Shown: positions 4,431 through 27,498 of the stretch, one piece after another
Position numbering within the stretch: position 1 is the stretch's first letter
Layout of the letters: every line of letters begins with the position of its first letter
IMG/VR virus record: IMGVR_UViG_2778261165_000017
Coordinates: 1-36,264 of that record
Direction: 5' to 3' (one strand)
Origin: a virus
Lineage: Duplodnaviria; Heunggongvirae; Uroviricota; Caudoviricetes
Length of the DNA: 36,264 bases
The notes under the pieces: model-generated
What the model saw: only the letters and a program-made list of their open reading frames with translations
Told to the model about the DNA's origin: nothing
The model's database searches: none
Made by a program: the position numbers and the translations under genes

Positions 4431-4483
4431 GGGCGGCAGAGCAGTCACGGAGTAAAACTGATACCGCCAAACGCCACCAGAAA
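4431..4483 (-). ncRNA. dicF: DicF small RNA (53 nt) with U-tail at 4426..4430
   Basis: Minus-strand sequence TTTCTGGTGGCGTTTGGCGGTATCAGTTTTACTCCGTGACTGCTCTGCCGCCC followed by TTTTT matches DicF as recalled, with one difference near the 5' end. Confidence 0.75.
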
Positions 4484-5834: not shown

Positions 5835-5990
5835 TCACTCACCTGAGTTTCTTTCCAGCCAGCGACGGGCACCATTTTCGGTTTTAAACGTTTTGCTTTT
5901 GGTATACGTCATCGCGGTGAATGTGCCGTCCTGGTTGGGAAACACGCCGTACACCAGAGATTCATTGTTGCCAAGATCGATAGTATCCAT
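5835..5990 (-). CDS. YdfA-like protein (51 aa)
   Basis: Internal Met of the 80-aa ORF with GAGG RBS 5-6 nt upstream; 51 aa as for YdfA; the longer form 5835..6077 is possible. Confidence 0.5.
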   Translation of the reverse strand: MDTIDLGNNESLVYGVFPNQDGTFTAMTYTKSKTFKTENGARRWLERNSGE

Positions 5991-6175
5991 GCTGACCTCA
6001 TTTCCCCTTAACGCCGGGGTAGCGGAACTAAAAAACTGCTGCGCTGTTATATAAAGTGTTCCCGCCGTCATGTTCATACGCCTCGGGCTGGCTACTTACC
6101 CCCTGACCACTGCTTGGTAACTCGAAGTATTGCCCGGCGTTCTGTGGGGCGGGGTGGGTTGGTGAAATAAGAATG

Positions 6176-6210
6176 CACTTTTAAAGTTATGATGTCAACA
6201 CTTATAAAGT
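6176..6210. promoter_or_regulatory. Left operator-like repeats (CACTTTTAAAGT and ACACTTATAAAGT) with a TTGACA on the minus strand
   Basis: Motifs are reverse-complement relatives of those between repressor and cro; the TTGACA (minus, 6199..6194) would be a -35 for the leftward dicB-type operon. Confidence 0.45.
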
Positions 6211-6273
6211 TAGATTCATGCAATAAAAAACCGCCTCCATGTGAAGCAGTTTTGTGAAAAAAGAGGAAGGGGA

Positions 6274-6555
6274 TTACCTAGGAAATTGGCGTCTGGCGTG
6301 GGCGACGCTCACAATTTCAATACTTGAAGTGGCCACACGGTACAGAATGATATAGTTAGGGTGAGCTACAATCTCGCGCAACCCAGACACTCTGTCGCTT
6401 GATGGGTATAAGTACGGATGTTCGGATAAAGCTAAAACACATGTCTCAATGCGAATTTTTAGTCTACGTGCGGCATGGAGATTTTCTTTTGCAATATAGG
6501 CTACGATCTGACGTAAATCATCACGCGCAGAAGGTAGCCATAAGATGGGCAGCAT
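6274..6555 (-). CDS. ParE/RelE-family toxin (93 aa)
   Basis: Translation MLPILWLPSARDDLRQIVAYI...YRV...IEIVSVAHARR has the typical ParE/RelE fold signature; start overlaps the antitoxin stop. Confidence 0.8.
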   Translation of the reverse strand: MLPILWLPSARDDLRQIVAYIAKENLHAARRLKIRIETCVLALSEHPYLYPSSDRVSGLREIVAHPNYIILYRVATSSIEIVSVAHARRQFPR

Positions 6556-6746
6556 CACACACTCCCGTTAGTCGCAGAAATTTGGGCAATGAGATTTTCT
6601 ATTTCTGCCATTGCCTCATCATGGGGAATTGCAGGGCGCGGATCTGCAAGACTTGCAGCTACTTTTGTACGCAGCCATTCGTTGTAGCTGTTTTCTTGCT
6701 CAATGGTTTCAAATTCAGAAACTATAGGCGAAAGAGCAGTGTTCAT
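6555..6746 (-). CDS. Cognate antitoxin (ParD-like, 63 aa)
   Basis: Small acidic ORF immediately upstream of and overlapping the toxin; GGAG RBS 8 nt upstream; 30 nt downstream of the repressor stop. Confidence 0.7.
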   Translation of the reverse strand: MNTALSPIVSEFETIEQENSYNEWLRTKVAASLADPRPAIPHDEAMAEIENLIAQISATNGSV

Positions 6747-6776
6747 AACATATCTCCGTTTGGCTTATGATGGCGA

Positions 6777-7184
6777 CTACGCTCGGTGCCCTTTCTGGGC
6801 CGCGAGCCATCTTGCAACAGTGCGATCCATTGACTCTTTTTTGTCTTTCATGTCTTTAAGCATTTGTTCCTGATCTTCCTCTGGAAATGCTCCGAATGTT
6901 TGAAGCAGTTCCCTTTGTCTGGGGCCTATTTTCATGGTATCTGGCACCACAACTTGCTCTTCTTCGCTTGGCGGTAACATAAACCAATACGGGGGAAAGC
7001 CCGTTACGTCTGAAAGTTTATCAAGATTAGCAGTCGATGGACTTGTAATGCCATGAACCCACTTTTGGACTGACTGCTGGGCAACACCTATCCTGCGGGC
7101 TAGCTCTGCCTGCTTAAGTCCTGTTTTTTCCAGCACCAATTTTATTCGGTACGTAGTTATTTCAAGGGTGGTCATTCGCTTCAT
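6777..7184 (-). CDS. Prophage repressor, DicA/RacR-like HTH protein (135 aa)
   Basis: N-terminal HTH (LKQAELARRIGVAQQSVQKWVHG); same length and C-terminal pattern as DicA; divergent from the cro-like gene; no S24 peptidase domain; no obvious SD before the ATG. Confidence 0.8.
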   Translation of the reverse strand: MKRMTTLEITTYRIKLVLEKTGLKQAELARRIGVAQQSVQKWVHGITSPSTANLDKLSDVTGFPPYWFMLPPSEEEQVVVPDTMKIGPRQRELLQTFGAFPEEDQEQMLKDMKDKKESMDRTVARWLAAQKGHRA

Positions 7185-7202
7185 GCATTCATTTTACATA
7201 AA

Positions 7203-7264
7203 AAAAGTGTAACTAGCACAATCAGCTTAAAAGTGTTGATAATATAACTTTAAAAGTGTATAAA
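7203..7264. promoter_or_regulatory. Right operator region: three AAAAGTGT-type sites and a rightward promoter (-35 TTGATA 7236..7241, -10 TATAAA 7259..7264)
   Basis: Sites at 7203..7210, 7226..7238 and 7247..7259; the third lies in the 17-bp promoter spacer. Confidence 0.55.
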
Positions 7265-7291: not shown

Positions 7292-7558
7292 ATGCATGAA
7301 TGTTTAAAAAAGAAAATTCACAAAAGAGGGTTATCCCAAGCAGGCGTTGCTCGCTTGATTGGATTGCCGCAACAGGTTGTATCTCGATGGGCTAATGGTC
7401 ATCAGGTTCCTGCGTCAAGGGTTCTACAACTGTGTGAGATTATGCAGTGGGAGGTTACTCCTCACGAACTCCGCCCTGATATTTACCCCAATCCAACCGA
7501 CGGCTTGCCTTCTGAGTTTAAGGCTAACACACAACCAGCTGCGGGAGTTGATTCATGA
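7292..7558 (+). CDS. Cro-like HTH regulator (YdaS-type, 88 aa)
   Basis: HTH LSQAGVARLIGLPQQVVSRW; GGGAG RBS 9 nt upstream of ATG 7292; divergent from repressor. Confidence 0.7.
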   Translation: MHECLKKKIHKRGLSQAGVARLIGLPQQVVSRWANGHQVPASRVLQLCEIMQWEVTPHELRPDIYPNPTDGLPSEFKANTQPAAGVDS

Positions 7559-7980
7559 AAATCAAGCATGAACACATCCGCATGGCGATGAATGCCTGGG
7601 CGCATCCGGACGGCGAAAAAGTACCGGCTGCGAAAATTACCAAAGCGTATTTCGAGCTGGGTATGACGTTCCCTGAACTGCATGACGACAGCAAACACAA
7701 CGCGCTTTATCTCAATACCCAGAAAATTTTCCGCTGGGTAGAGAAAGACACCCCTGATGCAGTTGAAAAAATTCAGGCGTTGTTACCAGCGATCGAAAAG
7801 GCAATGCCACCTTTGCTGGTGGCCAGAATGCGCAGCCACAGTTCAGCTTATTTTCGGGAGCTGGTGGAGACGCGGGAGCGACTGGTGAGAGACGCTGATG
7901 ATTTTGTCGCAGTGGCAATCGCCGGTTTCAATCAGATGAACCGTGGTGGCCCGGCAGGAAATTCTGTGGCAGTACATTGA
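7555..7980 (+). CDS. YdaT-like protein (CII-position, 141 aa)
   Basis: Starts MKIKHEHI as YdaT of Rac is recalled to; ATGA overlap with the cro-like gene. Confidence 0.55.
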   Translation: MKIKHEHIRMAMNAWAHPDGEKVPAAKITKAYFELGMTFPELHDDSKHNALYLNTQKIFRWVEKDTPDAVEKIQALLPAIEKAMPPLLVARMRSHSSAYFRELVETRERLVRDADDFVAVAIAGFNQMNRGGPAGNSVAVH

Positions 7981-12972: not shown

Positions 12973-13127
12973 TTTTATATTGGCGAGGTGACGGGAGTTA
13001 AGTAGAATTGCTGCGGGTGCTTGAGGCTGTCTGCCTCAGGCATGAACACCAAAAGGCAGATAGAGAAAAGCCCCAGTTAACATTACGCGTCCTGCAAGAC
13101 GCTTAACATTAATCTGAGGCCATATCT

Positions 13128-13340
13128 ATGCTCTACACACGTAGGTTAGCCTCTTACGTGCCGAAAGGCAAGGAGAAGCAGGCTATGAAGCAGCAAAAGG
13201 CGATGCTAATCGCCCTGATCGTCATCTGTTTAACCGTCATAGTGACGGCACTGGTAACGAGGAAAGACCTCTGCGAGGTACGAATCCGAACCGGCCAGAC
13301 GGAGGTCGCTGTCTTCACAGCTTACGAACCTGAGGAGTAA
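13128..13340 (+). CDS. mok: Mok-like in-frame extended reading frame (70 aa)
   Basis: In-frame N-terminal extension of hok, like MokC (69 aa) as recalled. Confidence 0.5.
   Translation: MLYTRRLASYVPKGKEKQAMKQQKAMLIALIVICLTVIVTALVTRKDLCEVRIRTGQTEVAVFTAYEPEE
13185..13340 (+). CDS. hok: Hok/Gef-family type I toxin (51 aa)
   Basis: MKQQKAMLIALIVICLTVIVTALVTRKDLCEVRIRTGQTEVAVFTAYEPEE is near-identical to HokC/Gef as recalled; AAGGAG RBS. Confidence 0.85.
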   Translation: MKQQKAMLIALIVICLTVIVTALVTRKDLCEVRIRTGQTEVAVFTAYEPEE

Positions 13341-14844: not shown

Positions 14845-15210
14845 ATGACTGAACGCATAGAATTTGTTTTGCCTTACCCGCCAACGGTGAACACTTACTG
14901 GCGTCGTCGTGGCAGCACATATTTTGTATCAAAAGCCGGGGAGCGTTATCGCCGGGCAGTGGCGCTTATTGTTCGCCAGCAGCGGCTGAAATTAAGCCTG
15001 TCCGGAAGGCTGGCAATAAAAATTATTGCAGAGCCACCGGATAAGCGCCGCCGCGACCTGGACAATATCCTGAAGGCACCACTGGATGCGCTGACGCATG
15101 CCGGACTTCTCATAGACGACGAGCAGTTTGATGAAATCAATATTGTGCGCGGACTGCCTGTTCCTGGTGGTCGGCTGGGGATAAAAATCACAGAACTGGA
15201 GTGCGCATGA
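14845..15210 (+). CDS. rusA: Holliday junction resolvase RusA (121 aa)
   Basis: Motifs YPPTVNTYW, DKRRRDLDN, GGRLGIKITE align with RusA as recalled. Confidence 0.85.
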   Translation: MTERIEFVLPYPPTVNTYWRRRGSTYFVSKAGERYRRAVALIVRQQRLKLSLSGRLAIKIIAEPPDKRRRDLDNILKAPLDALTHAGLLIDDEQFDEINIVRGLPVPGGRLGIKITELECA

Positions 15211-15896
15211 ATAACCAGTATTTACAGTTTGTGCGTGAGCAGCTCATTATCGCTACCGCTGATTTGAGTGGGGCAACAAAAGGTCAGCTTGAAGCCTGGC
15301 AGGAGAATGCCATGTTTGATACAGGGCGTTACAGGCGTAAAAAAATCCGGTACCGCGATGAAGTGACTGGAAGAATGATAACGCGGGATAGTCCACCGAT
15401 ACCGGGAAAACAATCACTGGCGAAAGGCTCATCAATTGCTCTGGTAAGTCAGGTTGAGTTTTCGACATCATCATGGCGACGGGCAGTTCTGTCTCTTGAA
15501 GAACTTCATAAAGCCTGGTTGTTGTGGTGTTACAGCGGGAGTATTTATTGGGAATATCAGATCGCGATAACACAGTGGGCGTGGAATGAATTTAATGCTC
15601 AATCCGGTACCAGAAAAATTGCAGGGAAAACGCAGGAACGCCTGAAAAAATTAATCTGGCTGGCGGCGCAGGCAGTAAAAGCAGAACTTTTTGGTGGGGA
15701 AGGTTATGAATACCAGGAGCTGGCATTACTGGCGGGAGTGACAACTAAAAACTGGTCAAAAACATTTACTCGTCACTGGGTTGCAATGAAACACATTTTT
15801 CACCGACTGGATAGTGAGGCTTTATTGTTTGTAATGAGAACACGTTCAAAACAAAAGACGGCATTTTCAAAGCAAAGTGTTGCAAAAGTAGATTGA
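15207..15896 (+). CDS. Late-gene antiterminator Q-like protein (229 aa)
   Basis: ATGA overlap with rusA; lies immediately upstream of a strong promoter plus terminator and the lysis cassette; family not sequence-verified. Confidence 0.6.
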   Translation: MNNQYLQFVREQLIIATADLSGATKGQLEAWQENAMFDTGRYRRKKIRYRDEVTGRMITRDSPPIPGKQSLAKGSSIALVSQVEFSTSSWRRAVLSLEELHKAWLLWCYSGSIYWEYQIAITQWAWNEFNAQSGTRKIAGKTQERLKKLIWLAAQAVKAELFGGEGYEYQELALLAGVTTKNWSKTFTRHWVAMKHIFHRLDSEALLFVMRTRSKQKTAFSKQSVAKVD

Positions 15897-16105: not shown

Positions 16106-16181
16106 GGCCCTTTAGCTCAGTGGTGAGAGCGAGCGACTCATAATCGCCAGGTCGCTGGTTCAAATCCAGCAAGGGCCACCA
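16106..16181 (+). tRNA. tRNA with CAT anticodon, Ile2 (lysidine)-like / Met-type
   Basis: Cloverleaf folded by hand; 7-bp acceptor stem GGCCCTT/AAGGGCC; anticodon loop CTCATAA; closely resembles E. coli ileX as recalled; CCA encoded. Confidence 0.85.
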
Positions 16182-16182
16182 A

Positions 16183-16259
16183 CCGCCACTAGCTCATCAG
16201 GAAAGAGCGTCAACCCTTTAAGTTGAGTGTGCGAGGTTCGAGTCCCCGGTGGCGGTCCA
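16183..16259 (+). tRNA. tRNA-like gene with atypical anticodon loop CCTTTAA (anticodon TTT if canonical, C at position 33)
   Basis: Perfect 7-bp acceptor stem CCGCCAC/GTGGCGG, perfect 5-bp anticodon stem, T-loop TTCGAGT with one A-C mismatch in the T stem; CCA encoded. Confidence 0.55.
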
Positions 16260-16261
16260 GT

Positions 16262-16337
<76 letters not shown>

Positions 16338-16340
16338 TAT

Positions 16341-16415
<75 letters not shown>

Positions 16416-26824: not shown

Positions 26825-27196
26825 ATGACTAAAAATATCCGTAATCTGGCACTGGCAACGATGTCGGGGTTTCGCCATAAAACTGTTGATGTGCCTGAAT
26901 GGGAAGGGGCAACGGTTGTATTACGGGAACCTTCTGCAGAAGCCTGGTTGCGCTGGCAGGAGATCGTTAAAGCAAAAGATGATGAGACACCGTTATCCGT
27001 TGCGGAGCGCGCCCGCCGAAATCTGGAGGCAGATGTTGAACTGTTCATTGATGTTCTGTGTGATACCGGACTGCAACCTGTATTTTCAGAGGATGATCGT
27101 GAACAGGTGATTGCCGTGTATGGCCCGGTGCATGCGCGGCTTCTTCGGCAGTCTCTGGAACTGATCAGTGATGCCGGCGAGGTTAAAAAAAAGTAG
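26825..27196 (+). CDS. Tail assembly chaperone (G-like, 123 aa)
   Basis: GAGGA RBS 7 nt before ATG 26825; ends at a poly-A slippery site. Confidence 0.7.
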   Translation: MTKNIRNLALATMSGFRHKTVDVPEWEGATVVLREPSAEAWLRWQEIVKAKDDETPLSVAERARRNLEADVELFIDVLCDTGLQPVFSEDDREQVIAVYGPVHARLLRQSLELISDAGEVKKK

Positions 27197-27498
27197 CGCT
27201 TCCGGGGATGCGTTTTCTGATGATGCTGGCGCTCAGGATGGGGCGCACATTGTCAGAGTTACGCCGGGAAATGTCCGCATCAGAAATCATGATGTGGGCA
27301 GAATTTGACAGGTTCAGCCCGCTGGGTGATGAGCGGGCTGATATCCGGGCTGCCCAGATAGTTTCTGCGGTTTACGGTGCGCAGGGTGTCAAAGTACCAC
27401 TGAATGATGCGCTTCTTCAGTGGGGGCAAGATTCTGAAGAAAATAAATGCGATGATCCATTTATTGGATTAGAGGTTGCTCTAATGTCTTCATTATAA
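27187..27498 (+). CDS. -1 frame extension giving the G-T fusion (T-like); slippery heptamer A AAA AAG at 27187..27193
   Basis: The -1 frame is open from 27187 to 27498 and has no start or RBS of its own. Confidence 0.65.
   Translation, partial: KKVALPGMRFLMMLALRMGRTLSELRREMSASEIMMWAEFDRFSPLGDERADIRAAQIVSAVYGAQGVKVPLNDALLQWGQDSEENKCDDPFIGLEVALMSSL

Follow-up and report, generated by a model that had tools for sequence, protein, structure and literature searches.

A probable paaR-paaA-parE toxin-antitoxin system of the RAE1 type in the immunity region of a lambdoid prophage

Introduction

Which genes lie between the immunity repressor and the left operators of the prophage examined here, and what could they do for the element that carries them? 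The DNA that was analysed (hereafter the window; IMG/VR record IMGVR_UViG_2778261165_000017, 36,264 nucleotides) is a lambdoid prophage and starts at its integrase. From left to right it contains the integrase, a YdfE-type exonuclease, the DicF RNA, the immunity region, the replication genes, hok/sok, RusA, Q, four tRNAs, and the lysis and structural genes; terminase, portal, capsid and tail genes were assigned by the size and order of their ORFs, and the Pfam check covered the early genes. A sequence-only reading of this DNA had pointed to two small genes downstream of the repressor gene, which were viewed as a ParE/ParD-like toxin-antitoxin pair, transcribed together with the repressor, and as a candidate module for phage exclusion or prophage stabilisation.

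Toxin-antitoxin systems with a third component are known from E. coli O157:H7. Hallez 2010 (Mol Microbiol 76:719), as cited in later papers and reviews, described two paralogous systems of this kind in this organism, in which the toxin ParE is paired with an antitoxin, PaaA, that lacks a DNA-binding domain, and the upstream gene paaR encodes the transcriptional regulator. RAE2 is the paaR2-paaA2-parE2 system of the cryptic prophage CP-933P/Sp12 (PMC8630535; structures 5CW7, 3ZBE and 8BT1); according to Jurenas 2021 (PMC8630535) and Prolic-Kalinsek 2023, it belongs to the immunity region of CP-933P and 'replaces rexA and rexB' there. In this prophage PaaR2 is the analogue of CI and is expressed from a leaderless mRNA, and YdaS and YdaT, encoded on the other strand, are the analogues of Cro and CII. 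PaaR2 and YdaS bind the OR operators, a second set of operators is present at PL after parE2, and the locus is bistable (PMC8630535). It has also been reported that YdaT activates the PRE promoter of CP-933P.

Gene order and boundaries

The ORF table and the sequence give three consecutive ORFs on the minus strand, i.e., a 135-residue ORF (6777..7184), a 63-residue ORF (6555..6746) and a 93-residue ORF (6274..6555). The first corresponds to a paaR-type immunity repressor gene, the second to a paaA-type antitoxin gene and the third to a parE-type toxin gene, of the ParE1/ParE2 type of E. coli O157 prophages. The stop codon of the repressor gene is separated by 30 nt from the start of the antitoxin gene, which lies on the same strand, begins with ATG and has a GGAGA Shine-Dalgarno sequence 6 nt upstream. 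The toxin gene starts at the ATG located at 6555-6553, and its own Shine-Dalgarno sequence, GGGAG, is found within the antitoxin gene. The antitoxin stop codon TGA (6557-6555) and the toxin ATG have base 6555 in common (TGATG), and the two genes overlap by this single nucleotide; the ORF lister gave the toxin ORF 94 residues, counted from a GTG one codon upstream of the ATG. The coordinates, the sizes, the overlap and the spacing of the initial description were all reproduced.

E. coli Z1323CEC0001 carries an identical locus, for which RefSeq gives the same boundaries of the toxin-antitoxin pair, including the 1-nt overlap; the antitoxin is named there 'hypothetical protein', and the repressor is given 132 residues, i.e., it is three codons short. 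The toxin and the antitoxin are not chance ORFs, given their Pfam E-values (8.9e-17 and 7e-21) and the occurrence of the exact toxin protein in 543 blocks of public assemblies. An antisense ORF that spans both genes (6399-6770, plus strand, 123 residues) has no Pfam family and was treated as spurious.

The toxin and the antitoxin

The match of the toxin to the Pfam family ParE_toxin runs through its full length (61.9 bits, cut-off 23), and the protein aligns without gaps with ParE2 of E. coli O157, of which there is a crystal structure (PDB 5CW7; E=2e-38, 65/92 identical residues, approx. 70-71%) and with ParE1 of the Sakai prophage Sp4 (86% identity). The protein is full length and, in an alignment of 24 members that includes homologues from E. 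coli, Salmonella, Bartonella, Acetobacter and metagenomes, it keeps all of the 19 invariant and 17 near-invariant residues. The proposal of a ParE-fold toxin with conserved ParE residues and a cognate small antitoxin is well supported. Overexpression of ParE2 has been shown to result in its colocalisation with the nucleoid and in induction of the SOS response (Jurenas 2021, PMC8630535). By analogy with these homologues, the protein encoded here would be toxic and would be neutralised by PaaA.

The sequence-only reading had suggested an antitoxin of the ParD/CC2985 type, a view that the comparison with known families does not sustain. Its only Pfam family at E<=0.01 is PaaA2 (PF21217; 74.4 bits, cut-off 27), and its only PDB match is also PaaA2, represented by the chain in 3ZBE (E=2e-22) and by the PaaA2 chain of 5CW7; no ParD or ribbon-helix-helix match was obtained, and a ParD-type antitoxin was rejected since the PaaA2 models alone match. 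A score of 88.8 bits (cut-off 50) was found with NCBIfam NF050103, an antitoxin equivalog that carries the name 'RelB family'. PaaA2 is reported to contain no domain for binding DNA (PMC8630535). Given that the antitoxin belongs to the PaaA family and lacks such a domain, the upstream repressor, as PaaR, completes the system as its third component and is more than a neighbour of the pair. The antitoxin of the homologous system is labile to ClpAP and ClpXP (PMC8630535), and a Clp-dependent decay may be expected for the antitoxin of this locus, as in its homologues.

The repressor and the identity of the system

The repressor consists of an Xre-type HTH N-terminal domain (Pfam HTH_3, 49.5 bits) followed by the conserved PaaR C-terminal domain, and the Pfam scan detected no S24 peptidase domain in it. 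It was compared with the proteins of prophage Sp4 (= CP-933M) of the Sakai genome and with the RAE2 proteins of a contig that contains PaaR2 and PaaA2. The identity with PaaR1 of Sp4 is 64% overall, 56% in the N-terminal (HTH) domain and 73% in the C-terminal domain; with PaaR2 it is 33% overall, and 52% over the C-terminal 52 residues. The identity with DicA of Qin is 30%.

The locus thus contains a toxin similar to ParE1 and ParE2, whose 93 residues agree with the approx. 92-95 of such toxins, a 63-residue PaaA without a DNA-binding domain, and a paaR gene directly upstream, all of them in a lambdoid immunity region. From these results, it is very probable that the gene pair and the upstream repressor constitute the three-component type II toxin-antitoxin system paaR-paaA-parE of a lambdoid prophage immunity region, and share its mechanism class. 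The first description of this system dates from 2010, and its dissection from 2021-2023; the literature already covers the system itself, its place in the rex slot, its transcription together with the repressor and the addiction phenotype, and the locus is probably a further immunity variant of a known family. Its main value lies in the annotation, given that the sequence favours a PaaA antitoxin and a leaderless PaaR of 135 residues over the names and the start site used at present.

The switch region

A putative PRM -10 box, TAAAAT, can be read on the minus strand at 7191..7196. It is located 6 nt ahead of the paaR ATG (7184), which would place +1 on the A of the ATG, and the same hexamer with the same spacing precedes paaR1 in Sp4. 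For paaR2, a leaderless mRNA was demonstrated by 5' RACE and N-terminal sequencing (PMC8630535), and we infer that the paaR transcript of this locus is leaderless as well. The spacing of the TAAAAT box, its presence in Sp4 and the leaderless paaR2 favour the start that yields 135 residues over the 132-residue start of RefSeq.

Next to paaR, the putative OR operators occupy 7200..7264 on the plus strand, with repeats (...AAAAGTGT) at 7203, 7227 and 7250, spaced by approx. 23 bp; they include the direct repeat D6 and the inverted repeats I1/I2. These operators overlap a predicted PR promoter on the same strand, formed by a -35 box TTGATA (7236-7241), a 17-nt spacer and a -10 box TATAAA (7259-7264). 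At the other side of the toxin gene, putative OL operators (6170..6211, minus strand; 6176-6188 and 6199-6211) overlap a PL-like promoter on the minus strand with a -35 box TTGACA (6198-6193), a 17-nt spacer and a weak -10 box, CATTCT (6175-6170), which is a poor match; the promoter points towards the ydfA-like gene (DUF1391). PR/OR is mirrored downstream of the toxin by an inverted repeat of 35 nt (6173-6207 versus 7227-7261, 86% complementary), and the 13-mer AACTTTAAAAGTG is present at 6176, at 6199 (one mismatch) and at 7246 (7246-7258), compared with an expectation of 0.94 for the entire window; a fourth match, with two mismatches, sits inside a gene. The left operator repeats that the sequence-only reading had noticed are therefore real features of the locus. 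The pair directly follows the repressor on the same strand, and its rexAB-equivalent position between the repressor and OL/PL also stands; the homologous locus of CP-933P is described in the same terms in PMC9986795. In CP-933P, PL933P with OL1-3 lies in the same relative place and is repressed approx. 100-fold by PaaR2 and YdaS (PMC8630535).

Directly after the toxin stop codon, a hairpin followed by a U-run (6222..6252, minus strand; an 11-bp stem and a 5-nt loop, then UUUUUUAUU) is likely the terminator of the paaR-paaA-parE transcript. The minimum free energy of the 66-nt stretch that contains it is -13.7 kcal/mol, with a z-score of only -1.2, which is not statistically strong. The pattern scan for promoters and terminators missed PR, PL and this hairpin, given its strict rules; inspection of the sequence, the mirror repeat of OR and OL, and folding served to locate them.

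On the plus strand, a ydaS-type gene (7292..7558) encodes the putative Cro analogue, with 88 residues from the ATG at 7292 and matches to Pfam YdaS_toxin (41.3 bits) and HTH_3. An alternative GTG start at 7256, which would give 100 residues, is upstream of the predicted PR -10 box, and ydaS is called with 88 residues in 7/8 loci that have the identical toxin. It is followed by ydaT (7555..7980, plus strand; 141 residues, Pfam YdaT_toxin), which encodes the putative CII analogue and matches the solved chains PDB 3C4R (E=1.4e-84) and 8BT1 (YdaT of CP-933P; E=1.5e-75). A predicted high-affinity operator of YdaT, OM (TTGATTCATGAAAATCAA; 7548..7565, plus strand), is found at the ydaS/ydaT junction, the site of a PRE-like promoter. 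Its motif, TTGATTN6AATCAA, was defined by footprinting (PMC9986795), and has a single exact match in the whole window, where 0.12 would be expected.

Proposed mechanism and role

Taken together with the published work on the homologues, these elements can be arranged in the following model. PaaR would act as the analogue of lambda CI and, in the lysogen, would bind OR and OL, shutting off PR, which would serve ydaS and ydaT (the analogues of Cro and CII), and PL. Transcription from the PRM-like promoter would produce the leaderless paaR mRNA and proceed through paaA and parE up to the hairpin terminator just before PL. PaaA, unable to bind DNA and expected to be proteolytically unstable, would wrap ParE and in this way neutralise it. 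If the immunity region were lost or replaced, PaaA would decay and ParE, modelled as a nucleoid-associated, SOS-inducing toxin, would kill or arrest the cell. Because ParE would be set free after the loss of the immunity region, the module could work as an addiction device that stabilises both the prophage and its immunity region. Given that PaaR is 64% identical to PaaR1 and 33% identical to PaaR2, and that the operators are different, the activation of PRM and DNA looping may differ from those of the known systems.

An addiction or stabilisation module, as in the published phenotype of the homologue, would be the most likely role of the pair. RAE2 stabilises an unstable plasmid through post-segregational killing (PMC8630535). 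This stabilisation was shown on plasmids and not on a prophage, and ParE2 activity was undetected in either transcriptional state; the authors detected none in normal growth (PMC8630535).

An alternative is that the module mainly serves to exclude phages or to abort infections, replacing RexAB in function as well as in position; another infecting phage would shut off host transcription or degrade PaaA, and the ParE set free would abort the infection. Many type II toxin-antitoxin systems are reported as anti-phage systems, the position of the pair and its expected expression in the lysogen resemble those of rexAB, and the lability of the homologous antitoxin to ClpAP/ClpXP would permit the toxin to be triggered by a shut-off of transcription; moreover, exclusion would be compatible with an addiction role. 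Nevertheless, the PADLOC models (PADLOC-DB 2.0) match neither the toxin nor the antitoxin (0 families for each one), and for the repressor the only matches are generic HTH models; the Pfam matches include no family of RexA or RexB; among the papers from 2021 on that were listed under the names of the system, none dealt with phage defence by paaA-parE; and the published data back addiction only. Exclusion as the main role is therefore considered unlikely, and addiction is preferred.

Spread of the immunity block

In the eight loci with the identical toxin that were inspected, the ydaT-ydaS-paaR-paaA-parE block is constant, in contrast to the left arm and the replication genes, which are Qin-like in some and Rac-like in others. 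This shows that the block moves as a cassette between lambdoid backbones, and fits the published idea that the toxin-antitoxin pair guards the immunity region against replacement. At roughly at least 80% identity, the DNA of the pair is present in 77 of 5,426 complete E. coli genomes; in the phage collection, a single genome carries the module, that of Escherichia phage Evi, and it is of the RAE2 type.

A bolder proposal would be that the PaaR system has here a third flavour of immunity, in which both the operators and the DNA-binding specificity of PaaR/YdaS are new, within a prophage that retains ORFs sized and ordered like a complete set of head, tail and lysis genes, and in which the toxin-antitoxin genes and the C-terminal domain of PaaR form one recombination unit that punishes immunity replacement or heteroimmune superinfection. 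We regard this proposal as a long shot; if true, the module would be a functional device of a live temperate phage, directed against recombination or for exclusion, as opposed to a relic in a cryptic prophage.

Transcription of the pair and mode of action of the toxin

Transcription of the pair together with the repressor, as proposed from the outset, is consistent with the sequence and would be expected from the homologues. No terminator is present in the 30-nt gap between the repressor and antitoxin genes, and a hairpin with a U-run is found only after the toxin. The homologous paaR2-paaA2-parE2 operon is tricistronic, and its co-transcription and its repression by PaaR2 were shown experimentally (PMC8630535). 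It could be argued instead that the pair is outside the repressor operon, either transcribed from a promoter of its own inside or after the repressor gene, or as an inactive remnant. Lambda rexB does have an additional promoter of its own, and a weak 5-bp terminator-like hairpin lies inside paaR at 7004-6989. However, the number of such hairpins is within chance expectation (3 found versus 1.5 +/- 1.2), the pattern scan of the minus strand revealed no promoter-like site from 7184 to 6746, and both the shortness of the gap and the tricistronic nature of the homologous operon argue against a separate promoter. A remnant is likewise at odds with the two ORFs being intact, with all the conserved residues kept, and with the recurrence of the exact toxin sequence in hundreds of assemblies. 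Both possibilities are thus very unlikely, and the repressor operon is taken here as the transcription unit of the pair.

The NCBI names would point to a toxin of the RelE type, which cleaves mRNA in a ribosome-dependent manner, with an antitoxin of the RelB type; this reading is hardly credible. The match of the toxin to NCBIfam RelE_StbE (TIGR02385) is weak (26.2 bits) and falls under the 27.9-bit cut-off. RelE and ParE have the same fold and belong to a single Pfam family, and the antitoxin model bears a RelB name, but the best PDB matches of the toxin were all deposited as ParE or plasmid stabilisation proteins, and its identity of 70-86% with ParE2 and ParE1, together with the presence of ParE2 at the nucleoid and its induction of SOS, points to DNA rather than to translation.

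Comparison with known systems

The backbone to the left of the immunity region is the same as in Qin, with a DUF1391 (ydfA-like) gene, the DicF RNA and a YdfE-type exonuclease, and the repressor has the length (135 residues) and the two-domain layout of DicA, at the low identity given above. In contrast, dicA of K-12 is followed by ydfA after 166 bp without any gene in between, as the sequence-only reading had stated; in the locus studied here, the toxin-antitoxin pair is inserted in this place. As for rexA-rexB of lambda, they also come after the repressor gene and before OL/PL, and are expressed in the lysogen from the promoter of the repressor, an arrangement that is predicted here. The two pairs have no relationship in sequence or fold, and RexAB does not belong to the type II toxin-antitoxin systems but acts in exclusion by depolarising the membrane.

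With the canonical parDE systems (that of RK2, ParD1/ParE1 of Caulobacter and ParD2/ParE2 of Vibrio), the locus shares a ParE-fold toxin, a small and partly disordered antitoxin encoded just upstream, and, probably, the character of an addiction or stabilisation module. It differs from them in that the antitoxin lacks the N-terminal ribbon-helix-helix DNA-binding domain with which ParD autoregulates its operon, and regulation is left to a separate repressor; in addition, with regard to the poisoning of DNA gyrase that marks the canonical toxins, the homologue ParE2 has been reported not to bind GyrA59.

The resemblance to RAE2 is closer. Both loci have a CI-like PaaR, a Cro-like YdaS, a CII-like YdaT with the TTGATTN6AATCAA motif, OR and OL operators, a PL promoter after the toxin, and the toxin-antitoxin genes in the place of rexAB. 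The proteins are similar in ParE (approx. 70-71% identity), in residues 1-44 of PaaA (91%) and in the C-terminal domain of PaaR (52%). The N-terminal DNA-binding domain of PaaR2 is unrelated in sequence to the one found here and has no Pfam hit, and the C-terminal third of PaaA is also unrelated (1/19). The full-length ORFs of the terminase, portal, capsid and tail genes, judged by their size and order, suggest that the element may be less decayed than CP-933P.

Judged by sequence, the closest characterised copy is paaR1-paaA1-parE1 (RAE1) of the Sakai prophage Sp4/CP-933M, whose genes are ECs_1069, ECs_1068 and ECs_1067, respectively. ParE is 86% identical to ParE1 and 71% to ParE2, PaaA is 83% identical to PaaA1 and 65% to PaaA2, and PaaR is 64% identical to PaaR1 and 33% to PaaR2. 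The gene order is the same in Sp4, with an equal 1-nt overlap of paaA1 and parE1, and the pair occupies the same site between the repressor and PL; YdaT is 87% identical, the -10 box has the same spacing of the leaderless type, and the sequence immediately past PL is common to both elements. The first 44 residues of the antitoxin are approx. 90% identical to both PaaA1 and PaaA2 (40/44 in the case of PaaA2), and it is in residues 45-63 (13/19 with PaaA1 versus 1/19 with PaaA2) and in the 43 N-terminal residues of the toxin (37/43 with ParE1 versus 23/43 with ParE2) that both proteins are of the '1' type. This distribution fits the reported lack of cross-neutralisation between PaaA1 and PaaA2. 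It also agrees with specificity being set by the C-terminal helix of PaaA2, as is reported of Sterckx 2016.

The two loci differ in their operators, which are unrelated (AACTTTAAAAGTG here versus AAAACTGTT...ACAGTTTTT in Sp4), in the HTH domain of PaaR (only 56% identity) and in YdaS (only 48%); the hairpin and T-run after the toxin are at the same place with another sequence, and the C-terminus of the toxin is two residues shorter here. Since the operators are unrelated and YdaS is so divergent, the present element probably has an immunity specificity of its own, different from that of Sp4. On these comparisons, the locus is an allele of the RAE1 (Sp4/CP-933M) type that differs in the DNA-binding parts of PaaR and YdaS and in the operators.

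Start codon of the repressor and edge of the immunity cassette

At the 5' end of the repressor gene (window 7175–7184, minus strand), RefSeq and other gene callers place the start on the second ATG, giving a repressor of 132 residues. The window sequence reveals a TAAAAT -10 box exactly 6 nt 5' of the first ATG (7184, minus strand), and no Shine-Dalgarno sequence precedes this codon; likewise, the spacing between the -10 box and the repressor ATG is identical in the Sakai prophage Sp4. Together, these features suggest that the repressor is a leaderless product of 135 residues, in the manner of PaaR2 and lambda cI.

On the other side of the module, near-identity to Sp4 resumes directly past PL (window 6078–6165 versus Sp4 27179–27270; CACCAACC..CCCACCCCGCCCCACAGAACGCCGGGCAATACTTCGAG...), and the immunity cassette has a sharp mosaic boundary at this point. 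The first ~60 nt of this stretch also show 90–98% identity to several unrelated sequenced coliphages.

Variants of the module in other genomes

Escherichia phage Evi (LR597642.1) encodes PaaR2, PaaA2 and an ORF identical to ParE2 (positions 2683–2961), the toxin gene having been left without annotation in this record. Since Evi is a sequenced phage, the module is not limited to cryptic prophages. A different arrangement is present in the E. coli contig AAVOND010000010.1 (2977–4288), where paaA-parE is preceded by two PaaR-type regulators in tandem, first a PaaR2-type repressor of 123 residues and then an HTH_3 protein of the PaaR1/window type of 153 residues, the gene of the latter overlapping paaA by 32 nt at its 3' end. 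The layout of this locus has the appearance of a cassette of three genes that was placed behind a different immunity repressor, or else of an intermediate in recombination. In one other assembly (locus L004, 1319–2871), a pair of IS91-family transposase genes is inserted between paaA2 and parE2, leaving a ParE2 ORF of 108 residues with a foreign N-terminus; this is a natural disruption of paaA2-parE2.

Other elements of the prophage

A sok antitoxin RNA that matches Rfam RF01794 at 117.8 bits (window 13015–13190, plus strand) indicates a type I hok/sok locus, a second toxin-antitoxin system in the prophage that bears paaR-paaA-parE. Just 3' of the Q antiterminator gene (15201–15896), four tRNA genes (Met-CAT, Lys-TTT, Thr-TGT and Gly-TCC) are clustered at 16106–16415 on the plus strand; the corresponding position in Sp4 is occupied by Ile/Arg/Arg tRNAs. 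The first gene beyond PL is the ydfA-like DUF1391 gene (5835–6077), and the PL operon contains the antisense sRNA DicF (4431–4482, minus strand; RF00039, 76.4 bits), as it does in the K-12 prophage Qin.
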